Assembly (NCBI GenBank): GCA_018653365.1
Contig: JABIAG010000001.1
Span: 698,231-762,230 of the forward strand
Direction: 5' to 3'
DNA from: Candidatus Woesearchaeota archaeon
GTDB lineage: Archaea > Nanobdellota > Nanobdellia > Woesearchaeales > JABIAG01
DNA: 64,000 bases
Below the pieces are notes generated by a model. It did no database searches. It had not been told where the DNA came from and saw only the letters and a program-made list of their open reading frames with translations. Below, piece after piece: positions 51,625-53,540 of this stretch. Position 1 is the stretch's first letter. Each line of letters begins with the position of its first letter. A program made the translations under genes and the position numbers.

Positions 51625-52647
51625 ATGAAACAAAATAAACATTATTCATACAATCAAAAAAGCATCTGTGACGGGTGTAAATTGTGCGTAAAAGGGAGAA
51701 AATCAGTGATTTTCATAACAGGACTCTGTCCACGTAGTTGTGAATACTGCCCATTATCTGATGAAAAGTACAAAAAAGACGTAATGTACTGTAATGAACG
51801 GAAAGTAAACAAATTAGATGAGATAATTGCTGAAGTAAAGATTTCTAGATCAACCGGTGCAGGAATAACGGGAGGAGATCCACTAGTTAAACTTGGAAGA
51901 ACCGTCGAAATCATTAAGATGTTGAAAAAAAGCTTTGGAAGTAAGTTTCACATCCATCTTTATACCTCTCCAAACCTAGTTACCGAAGATAAATTAAATC
52001 AACTACATAAAGCAGGGTTAGATGAAATAAGATTTCACCCAGATATTGAAAGTGATAAATTATGGAATAAAATCAATGTTGCCAAAACGTTTAACTGGAA
52101 AGTTGGAATAGAAATCCCGGTAATTCCAGGAAAATATACTGAAACCGTTAAATTGATTGAATATTTCAAGTGGGTTGATTTTATCAACCTAAACGAACTG
52201 GAAATGTCAGACGGAAACGCATATGTACAAACAGGCAAATGTAAAGATACACTAAGTTATGCAATAACGGGGAGTAAAGCATTGGCAATGAGACTAATGA
52301 AACGATTTAGTAAGTTACAAATACACTTCTGCACAGCCAAACTAAAAGACAGAGTACAACTAGCAAACAGAATTAAGTTAAGAGCTAAAAGTGTAGCACG
52401 TAAACTGGATTACGTAGATGAAGAAGGACTCATCACACACGGTGAGATTAAAGGAACTGAAAAAGATATGATTGCAATTAAGAAAGAGTTTAGCATTCCC
52501 ACTTCTTTGATTGAGTTTGATGGAATAATAAACATTGCTGCATGGGTATTGTTAGATATTTACAAAGAAATACGTCACAAATGCTATATTGTAAAAGAAT
52601 ACCCAACATATGATAAATTGATTATTGAGAAGGAAGAATTGAAATAA
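51625..52647 (+). CDS. conserved archaeal radical SAM protein (COG2108-like)
   Basis: GCKLCVKG, ITGLCPRSCEYCP, TGGDP, HIHLYT, DEIRFHP. Confidence 0.88.
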   Translation: MKQNKHYSYNQKSICDGCKLCVKGRKSVIFITGLCPRSCEYCPLSDEKYKKDVMYCNERKVNKLDEIIAEVKISRSTGAGITGGDPLVKLGRTVEIIKMLKKSFGSKFHIHLYTSPNLVTEDKLNQLHKAGLDEIRFHPDIESDKLWNKINVAKTFNWKVGIEIPVIPGKYTETVKLIEYFKWVDFINLNELEMSDGNAYVQTGKCKDTLSYAITGSKALAMRLMKRFSKLQIHFCTAKLKDRVQLANRIKLRAKSVARKLDYVDEEGLITHGEIKGTEKDMIAIKKEFSIPTSLIEFDGIINIAAWVLLDIYKEIRHKCYIVKEYPTYDKLIIEKEELK

Positions 52648-52659
52648 AAAATAAAAAAA

Positions 52660-52831
52660 CGCCCCCGGTCAGACTTGAACTGACGACCTAAACCGAAATT
52701 AGTCATTTCTGGCTAATTTTTGCGGTAACTGCTTAACAGATTAACAGCTTCGTGATCTCAAAAGCGAGATTCGCACGCTCTACCTGTTGCTCCGCAGAAG
52801 CGTTAACTCCATACGTCTAAGCTACAGGGGC
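52660..52831 (-). tRNA. tRNA-Asn(GTT) with four BHB introns
   Basis: Exons 52831-52817, 52786-52772, 52748-52742, 52726-52721 and 52689-52660 give a 73-nt cloverleaf GCCCCTG TA GCTT AGCAGGTA GAGC G TGCGG CTGTTAA CCGCA AGGTC GTCAG TTCAAGT CTGAC CGGGGGC G. Confidence 0.9.
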
Positions 52832-52883
52832 AATTATTTTTTGTAGAGCGTGTAGGTCTGAAATAAAGAAAGTTACAATCACT

Positions 52884-53492
52884 TTATAAAATTTTCTGTA
52901 TTTTATTACCTTTTCTATGATGGTTTGATCCTATCAACAACCCCCATTTTTCAAGGTTCTTGAATCCGGGAAGTTCCAACCTTGATGCATTTCCCTTCTT
53001 AGAAATTGAACCATAAAAACCACAATCTTCTAGTTTACTCAATATTTGAACAAGAAACGATTTGGCATTGCTAGTAATCTCAATTCTCGGATAATAAGGT
53101 ATTGTTCTATGTTGTTTACTCAAAACACAACAACCATCCGTATCAAACAAACCCCTTAAGAAATCAAAGAAGAATTGGGAGTTAATCAAGTCATTACCAA
53201 TCTTCAAATTTGAATATTTCTTTCCCACAGGCATACCCCAACTTTTAAAAGTATCAAATATACCTTTATCACTGAATCTTAAAAACAGGGTATTTTCTTT
53301 TTTTCTAAATCCGATGTTAACAGTTTTATTAAAAACTTCTAAGAATAACTTTTTTGTAACCTGAGTATGATACGCAAAATCGTCTAGTTTGTGACCGCTG
53401 ATATAGATTAAGTGTCTATTTCCTGCTCGCGATAAACAGCCATCTCCAAACATGATCCCCAACAGTTCTGCTTTTGCTACATCCATTTTCAT
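52884..53492 (-). CDS. free-standing LAGLIDADG homing endonuclease-like protein
   Basis: AELLGIMFGDGCL and FLRGLFDTDGC motifs. Confidence 0.9.
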   Translation of the reverse strand: MKMDVAKAELLGIMFGDGCLSRAGNRHLIYISGHKLDDFAYHTQVTKKLFLEVFNKTVNIGFRKKENTLFLRFSDKGIFDTFKSWGMPVGKKYSNLKIGNDLINSQFFFDFLRGLFDTDGCCVLSKQHRTIPYYPRIEITSNAKSFLVQILSKLEDCGFYGSISKKGNASRLELPGFKNLEKWGLLIGSNHHRKGNKIQKIL

Positions 53493-53499
53493 TTTATTT

Positions 53500-53540
53500 T
53501 CCTCCAAAGTTTTCACTATTGTAAACTTTGGATTTGGCAG
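53500..53540 (-). promoter_or_regulatory. 5' leader hairpin sequestering the GGAGG RBS of the LAGLIDADG gene
   Basis: Minus strand CTGCCAAA-TCCAAAGTT-N12-AACTTTGGA-GGA...ATG. Confidence 0.7.

Follow-up and report, generated by a model that had tools for sequence, protein, structure and literature searches.

The largest number of introns described for one tRNA gene in the peer-reviewed literature is three, found in Thermoproteales (Sugahara et al. 2008 as summarised in the review PMC4033280), in agreement with the maximum given in a preliminary description of the locus analysed here. In complete Asgard genomes, introns interrupt >90% of the tRNA genes (PMC11291895), and a preprint of October 2026 reports up to five intervening sequences in a single Asgard tRNA gene. 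For DPANN archaea, the work of Kaneta et al. 2018 (PMC5829648), in which one Woesearchaeota genome was analysed, associates alpha4-type tRNA splicing endonucleases (EndA) with more tRNA disruption, places an L3 loop in several DPANN alpha4 EndAs, and takes the incomplete tRNA sets of some DPANN genomes to point to hidden disrupted genes. According to the same work and PMC3488258, relaxed bulge-helix-bulge (BHB) motifs require an EndA type that carries a specificity loop. In the DPANN works PMC5829648, PMC3239211, and PMC3488258, we found no description of a four-intron gene, and our literature search yielded no report of tRNA genes with four or five introns in Woesearchaeota. Here, we describe a tRNA-Asn(GTT) gene with four BHB introns that, judging from comparison with its relatives, is very probably functional in its host, a very small archaeon of the Woesearchaeales (DPANN). 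It is located in a 64,000-nt stretch of genome G000 (the window), to whose positions the coordinates below refer unless a genome or locus is named. It has one intron more than the largest number in peer-reviewed work, yet the count is not unprecedented and is no record: it is preceded by the five intervening sequences in Asgard and matched or surpassed by relatives with four or five introns.

The gene occupies 172 nt of the minus strand (52660-52831) in a 236-nt gap between ORFs at 51625-52647 (+) and 52884-53516 (−). The convergent downstream ORF (51625-52647) encodes an ordinary radical SAM protein (PF04055); in the same-genus genome G002, ~1.2 kb of other sequence separates the radical SAM homologue from tRNA-Asn. 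Based on the sequence of the window, the gene consists of five exons of 15, 15, 7, 6, and 30 nt, i.e., 73 nt in total, and four introns of 30, 23, 15, and 31 nt, all on the minus strand. Exon 1 (52817-52831, tRNA positions 1-15) comprises the 5' strand of the acceptor stem, U8, the 5' strand of the D-stem, and A14, and matches the 5' exon of the orthologues. Intron 1 (52787-52816) interrupts the tRNA between positions 15 and 16 (15/16), and is followed by exon 2 (52772-52786, positions 16-30), which was delimited from the product called by ARAGORN and by comparison with orthologues. Intron 2 (52749-52771, at 30/31) precedes a 7-nt micro-exon that carries the anticodon GTT (exon 3, 52742-52748, positions 31-37). 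Intron 3 (52727-52741) is located at the canonical site 37/38 and is separated from intron 4 (52690-52720, at 43/44) by a micro-exon of only 6 nt (exon 4, 52721-52726, positions 38-43). Exon 5 (52660-52689, positions 44-73) contains the variable loop, the T-arm, the 3' strand of the acceptor stem, and the discriminator base G73; CCA is not encoded. ARAGORN called the joined exons as tRNA-Asn(gtt) of 73 nt. The spliced product has a 7-bp acceptor stem, U8, A14, G18G19, a 5-bp anticodon stem, a 5-nt variable loop, a TTCAAGT T-loop, and G73. The anticodon GUU, the orthology, and G73, which is present in 24 of the 24 orthologues read, identify it as tRNA-Asn(GUU).

At all four junctions, the central helix (H) is paired at four of four positions (GCTT/GAGC, CGTG/CACG, CTGT/GCAG, and ACCG/CGGT for introns 1 to 4, respectively) and is bordered by two 3-nt bulges with the cut after the second bulge base. 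Intron 1 forms an HBh' motif with a 4-bp intron helix (h') and no exon outer helix (h). Intron 2 forms a complete hBHBh' motif with h' of 6 bp and h of 2 bp. Intron 4 has an h' of 7 bp (AAATTAG/CTAATTT) and an h of three weak pairs that exists only while intron 3 is present; its motif is hBHBh' in the primary transcript and HBh' after intron 3 removal. Introns 1, 2, and 4 therefore each have at least one flanking helix of ≥2 pairs. Intron 3 is of the hBH, or bulge-helix-loop, type, and its outer helix is the anticodon stem; h and h' have 1 bp each in the primary transcript, and h has 5 bp once the other introns are out. The paired cores with correct bulges, the flanking helices, the canonical cloverleaf left upon removal, and the presence of genes for EndA and the ligase RtcB in the genome support that all four insertions are BHB introns. 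Thus, the intron coordinates and lengths, the G73 cloverleaf, the four central helices and cut sites, and the two micro-exons given in the preliminary description were all reproduced.

Directly after G73, an oligo-T tract (52642-52659, −) is likely an archaeal transcription terminator, and a similar T tract is present at several other tRNA genes of the genome. Upstream of the gene, a TATA-box-like sequence, TTTATAAA (52883-52890, −), is located at −59 to −52 and includes the stop codon of the upstream ORF, which encodes a LAGLIDADG-type endonuclease (see below). The majority of the other tRNA genes in G000 also have this BRE/TATA-like motif (at tRNA-Asn in the region 52861-52890), usually near −33 to −25. 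The box of tRNA-Asn is thus placed ~27 nt further upstream than in most of these genes, a position that would imply a leader of ~27 nt or co-transcription with the LAGLIDADG ORF. A weaker sequence, CTTTATTT, at −38 to −31 represents an alternative promoter box.

To place the gene among its relatives, we read 24 orthologous tRNA-Asn genes, all of which splice to 72-73 nt and contain 0-5 introns. Positions 8-58 of the spliced product are identical to those of the intronless orthologues L010, L013, and L018. Ten orthologues have a 15/16 intron with the same H and bulges as intron 1, together with an h' that co-varies (CGTA/TGCG, CATG/CATG, CGTGG/CCACG, and others). The H of the 30/31 intron is paired at four of four positions in nine of the nine orthologues that have it. 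The 43/44 introns of ten genes have ten different h' helices that are 100% paired, compared to 55% with shuffled partners, and none of 2,000 shuffles reached the observed value. Likewise, the observed pairing was reached in 0 of 2,000 partner shuffles for the helices of the 30/31 introns and in 3 of 2,000 for those of the 15/16 introns. Compensatory change on this scale among related genomes, which are not independent, would be hard to explain without selection for structure.

Standard finders did not detect the gene, as had been anticipated: it was missed by ARAGORN in default mode and with introns allowed, and by Rfam RF00005 (tRNA) at both the gathering score and E ≤ 1. An exhaustive search of every set of up to five BHB-core-compatible introns that leaves a strict class-I cloverleaf gave only four solutions, which have introns 2-4 and the anticodon GTT in common. 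The three solutions other than the four-intron one contain five introns and differ only in the D region. They, together with the boundaries of introns 3 and 4, each of which could lie one base away without altering the mature sequence, could be taken to mean that the gene is real but built differently, either with two small introns in the D-arm and thus five in total, or with boundaries shifted by one base. However, the five-intron alternatives lack flanking helices, leave D-loops without G18G19, and resemble no orthologue; in ten orthologues, the 15/16 intron is single and has H and bulges identical to those of intron 1. Moreover, in a by-eye check of exon and intron sequences, shifting the boundaries to 38/39 and 44/45 broke the central helix. 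We consider such a deviating architecture extremely unlikely. Under strict rules one solution is left, the four-intron architecture, which alone combines A14 and a GG D-loop with flanking helices at all introns. As a control for chance, the inner 133 nt were shuffled 400 times. Under loose rules, 25-30 of the 400 shuffles (6-8%) gave some cloverleaf with up to 4-5 BHB-core introns, and under strict rules none of the 400 did. Because the loose rules are still satisfied by this many shuffles, the motif-plus-cloverleaf argument is by itself only moderately specific, and one could suppose that free intron choice forced an acceptor/T-arm-like pair and unrelated intervening sequence into a cloverleaf. 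That supposition is already refuted by exons identical to those of intronless orthologues, and the G002 locus has intron 1 and the upstream flank in common with G000; the probability of a chance resemblance is close to nil. We regard the comparative evidence, i.e., the identity to intronless orthologues, as decisive for the reality of the gene.

A real gene could still be a decaying or silent copy, with its interruptions being junk insertions that are never spliced and a working tRNA-Asn located in the ~5% of the genome that is unassembled. The assembly, which comprises 1.09 Mb in 3 contigs with 34% G+C and is estimated to be 94.9% (94.93%) complete, leaves space for such a gene, and the promoter-like box lies at an unusual distance from tRNA-Asn. 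On the other hand, all exon positions are intact and match those of intronless orthologues, the four BHB cores are all perfect, and compensatory change keeps the intron helices across families. In addition, in G020, which is represented by one contig and rated 100% complete, a tRNA-Asn gene of the multi-intron design was the only match to a tRNA-Asn query. Finally, the search for another tRNA-Asn that the preliminary description called for identified no second copy in the 1.09 Mb of G000 using ARAGORN with introns allowed, RF00005 at E ≤ 1, and blastn-short with an intronless orthologue. We consider a decaying copy very unlikely; in all likelihood, the gene described here is the single functional tRNA-Asn(GUU) gene of the genome.

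The tRNA-Asn gene is not the only tRNA gene of G000 that is difficult to detect. ARAGORN and Rfam recovered only ~26-31 tRNA genes, several with wrong anticodons, and Val, Pro, Tyr, and Met are among the missing calls. Because many of the candidates are 90-161 nt long, we conclude that much of the tRNA set is concealed by non-canonical introns. A multi-intron solver run with strict rules on all tRNA candidates of G000 left 11 of 27 unsolved; among the solved ones, tRNA-Asn was the only four-intron solution. With 172 nt, it is also the longest tRNA gene detected, compared to 161 and 150 nt for the next two. Copies of the four introns were not found elsewhere in the genome beyond chance matches of 10-13 nt, and none of the four contains a palindrome of the AAATC..GATTT type. 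As the gene is invisible to ARAGORN and the Rfam tRNA model, annotation of this and related DPANN genomes can be expected to list tRNA-Asn wrongly as missing.

The introns of the orthologues recur at the sites 15/16, 30/31, 37/38, 43/44, and 59/60, and one is located at 53/54. Five genomes, including G003 of the same family, have an intronless gene, several genomes have 1-3 introns, and four introns are present in G031, G328, and G090 in addition to G000. Because of an extra intron at 59/60, the tRNA-Asn genes of G139 and G071 have five introns. In a junction pattern search of a 401-genome sample of the order, the 37/38 and 43/44 introns occurred together in at least 10 genomes from 10 genera, and at least 6 of those 10 genomes carry four introns or more; both numbers are minimum estimates because the search detects only 43/44 introns of 12-42 nt and 37/38 introns of ≤30 nt. 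An order-wide BLAST with an intronless query listed mostly genes without introns and helped little with the split ones. The T-loop intron at 59/60 was seen in L113 (G139), L117 (G071), L122 (G090), and L114 (G297); its central helix is paired at four of four positions in L114, at three in L113 and L122, and at two in L117, and the intron hairpin has 9 bp in three of these four loci. In the same-genus genome G001 (L123, G001:C4:62400-62900), the single tRNA-Asn intron is located at 53/54 and has an H of CACC/GGTG paired at four of four positions and an h' of 9 bp. The 53/54 site is used in no other orthologue read, and the flank in G001 differs.

The closest comparison is with G002, in which the same locus is 82-95% identical to that of G000 over the upstream flank and intron 1. 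The tRNA-Asn gene of G002 carries only the 15/16 intron, and family-level relatives are intronless. With four introns in G000 and one in G002 at the same locus, three adjacent introns would have been either gained in the line of G000 or lost in that of G002 within genus-level divergence. A TCTC...GAGA stem not dictated by function recurs in the 30/31 introns of distant families, which hints at a common origin or transfer rather than independent invention. A single gene with 0 to 5 introns at six sites in one order, with variation extending to one locus within one genus, represents an unusually clean natural series. It bears on how protein-spliced introns are gained and lost, on whether overlapping motifs are spliced in a set order, and on whether a loop-less alpha4-type EndA copes with relaxed motifs.

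The short exons cause the motifs to overlap, as had been proposed from the sequence. Bases 25-28 and 38-41 take part in the central helices of introns 2 and 4, respectively, so that these helices overlap both strands of the anticodon stem (27-28 and 39-41), which is the outer helix of intron 3; the intron 4 helix at 38-41 likewise competes with the anticodon stem. Using constrained ensemble folding, we estimated the penalty for forming each BHB core in the primary transcript. The penalty was 1.1 kcal/mol for intron 4, 1.6 kcal/mol for intron 2, 3.8 kcal/mol for intron 1, and 7.3 kcal/mol for intron 3, and the last value dropped to 2.5-2.9 kcal/mol once intron 2 was removed. Together with the extension of the intron 3 outer helix from 1 bp to 5 bp when the other introns are out, this supports in silico the earlier proposal that the 37/38 motif needs prior removal of intron 2. 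Folded locally, the anticodon arm with intron 3 adopts exactly the bulge-helix-loop structure (−8.9 kcal/mol). Most BHB motifs are absent from the global minimum-free-energy fold of the 172-nt precursor. We note that intron 3 (52727-52741) contains an exact copy, CTGTTAA, of the anticodon loop (cf. 52742-52748). In the folding model, early loss of intron 1, with intron 3 still in place, is predicted to create a trap: the joined D-arm would then pair with intron 3 in a helix of ~12 bp that outcompetes the splicing motif.

These data are consistent with the following pathway. A precursor of ~172 nt plus leader would be transcribed, EndA would remove the four BHB introns at 15/16, 30/31, 37/38, and 43/44, RtcB would join the exons, and CCA would be added post-transcriptionally. 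Introns 1, 2, and 4 would act as self-contained motifs in which four exon bases pair with four intron bases, followed by the intron hairpin, and the central helices of introns 2 and 4 would take bases 27-28 and 38-41, respectively, from the anticodon stem. Because this stem, the outer helix of the 37/38 motif, would form only after introns 2 and 4 are gone, intron 3 would be cut late. The suggested order is introns 4 and 2, then 3, then 1, a weak prediction from nearest-neighbour energies.

G000 encodes a single recognisable EndA of 177 aa (G000:C1:14506-15036; PF02778 and PF01974, TIGR00324) with one N-terminal and one catalytic C-terminal domain, and RtcB (C1:408850-410136; E = 2.4e-170). 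No second EndA-like gene or subunit was found in the genome using PF01974 at E ≤ 10, the NCBIfam beta-subunit model NF007085, and tblastn. Relatives of this EndA are almost all titled as Woesearchaeota or Nanoarchaeota MAGs, and an alignment of six Woesearchaeota homologues spans 177 columns with no gaps. The alignment to the alpha4 EndA of M. jannaschii (1A79) is nearly gapless (148 vs 147 residues) and shows no N-terminal insertion. Where N. equitans EndA carries its basic loop (residues 90-98), with a 6-residue basic insertion, and where ARMAN-2 carries the ASL, the protein shows gaps. In these alignments, we identified no basic insertion near the catalytic His and none of the broad-specificity loops L1/CSL, L2/ASL, and L3/NEQ. 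Thus, based on its single gene, domain composition, and alignments, we classify the enzyme as alpha4-like and without the loops tied to broad specificity. Two of the tRNA-Asn motifs are relaxed, with intron 1 lacking an exon outer helix and intron 3 an intron helix, and the sole EndA found is loop-less. More generally, the loop-less EndA coexists with a heavy load of non-canonical introns in G000.

The ORF located 52 nt upstream of tRNA-Asn on the same strand (52884-53516, −), outside the tRNA gene itself, encodes a free-standing LAGLIDADG-type endonuclease of 210 aa (PF14528, E = 2.4e-7). G000 has five LAGLIDADG-like ORFs, the other four being at C2:126684-127343, C2:78528-79067, C2:81175-81789, and C1:458196-458831, and all five are within ~150 nt of intron-bearing tRNA genes. 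A homologue with 55% identity overlaps the 3' end of the three-intron tRNA-Asn of G238 (L116:762-1538), a related ORF overlaps the tRNA-Asn 3' end in G090 (L122:1584-2690), and in G297 a LAGLIDADG-like ORF in two reading frames, and thus probably broken, lies 144 nt from tRNA-Asn (L114:1774-2287). Leaving aside a marginal match in L007 (E = 5.5e-4), a LAGLIDADG neighbour is present at 4 of 10 Asn loci with a 43/44 intron and at 0 of 13 without, which are small numbers from related genomes. A different upstream neighbour, a conserved ORF of 259-276 aa (L002:1544-2362, L003:1647-2441, L118:1619-2449, and L006:695-1474), is present in G002, G031, G328, and G020, with 46-53% identity among the four relatives and only weak HTH matches. 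This ORF overlaps exon 1 of tRNA-Asn and terminates at the TAG of tRNA positions 13-15. Of its codons, G000 retains the first 10 and the last 28 only, with the LAGLIDADG gene between them; the remnant is located at G000:C1:751050-751133 (window 52820-52903). The same-genus G002, without the endonuclease, has one intron compared to four in G000. This adjacency suggests that the endonuclease and the intron-laden allele may spread together. In the literature, we found nothing directly relevant on free-standing LAGLIDADG genes beside archaeal tRNA introns.

A joint reading of these observations is possible, although we hold it only tentatively: a loop-less EndA would process relaxed HBh' and bulge-helix-loop motifs in an obligatory order, and the intron load would travel with a LAGLIDADG endonuclease. 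If true, a loop-less alpha4-type EndA acting on the relaxed 15/16 and 37/38 motifs would contradict the rule that broad specificity requires a loop, and, with motifs that are partly mutually exclusive, a correct tRNA-Asn would depend on the order of cutting. The origin of BHB introns is an open question, to which the neighbouring LAGLIDADG gene provides a testable lead; if the enzyme cuts uninterrupted tRNA alleles and introns protect their carrier, BHB introns would have a concrete means of spreading.

Comparison with known systems shows partial matches. As in Thermoproteales, to the extent that these are covered by the summary in the review, BHB introns occupy canonical and non-canonical positions, are missed by standard finders, and are gained and lost rapidly between relatives. 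Unlike in these Crenarchaeota with their maximum of three, there are four introns here and five in relatives, in a DPANN lineage. Moreover, Thermoproteales EndA is a heterotetrameric (alpha-beta)2 enzyme with a Crenarchaea-specific loop, whereas in G000 we found a single alpha-type protein of 177 aa and no second subunit; by lineage, EndA subunits, and loop, G000 does not have a Thermoproteales-type system. The likeness to Asgard archaea is that introns interrupt the majority of tRNA genes, with many of them escaping tRNAscan-SE, that sites are BHB competent, and that gains are repeated. Asgard archaea differ in belonging to another superphylum and in having genomes several times larger, and, in G000, the tRNA gene adjoins a free-standing LAGLIDADG gene. 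Among DPANN archaea, with the split tRNAs of N. equitans and the epsilon2 EndA of ARMAN-2 as examples (PMC5829648, PMC3239211, and PMC3488258), small genomes show tRNA disruption beyond what the EndA subunit type predicts, as is the case here. In contrast to these examples, the G000 EndA has neither the basic insertion of N. equitans nor the ASL of ARMAN-2. For the neighbouring endonuclease gene, the nearest parallel is collaborative homing, in which free-standing homing endonuclease genes reportedly operate with nearby introns in T4-like phages and cyanophages (work attributed to Bonocora & Shub, 2009, and Zeng et al., 2009). Collaborative homing concerns self-splicing group I introns of phages, whereas the introns here are protein-spliced BHB introns of a cellular tRNA gene that are linked by adjacency only to a gene with putative endonuclease activity. 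In both systems, an endonuclease gene outside the intron adjoins an intron-bearing gene, such that the intron could protect its carrier and both could spread by co-conversion.
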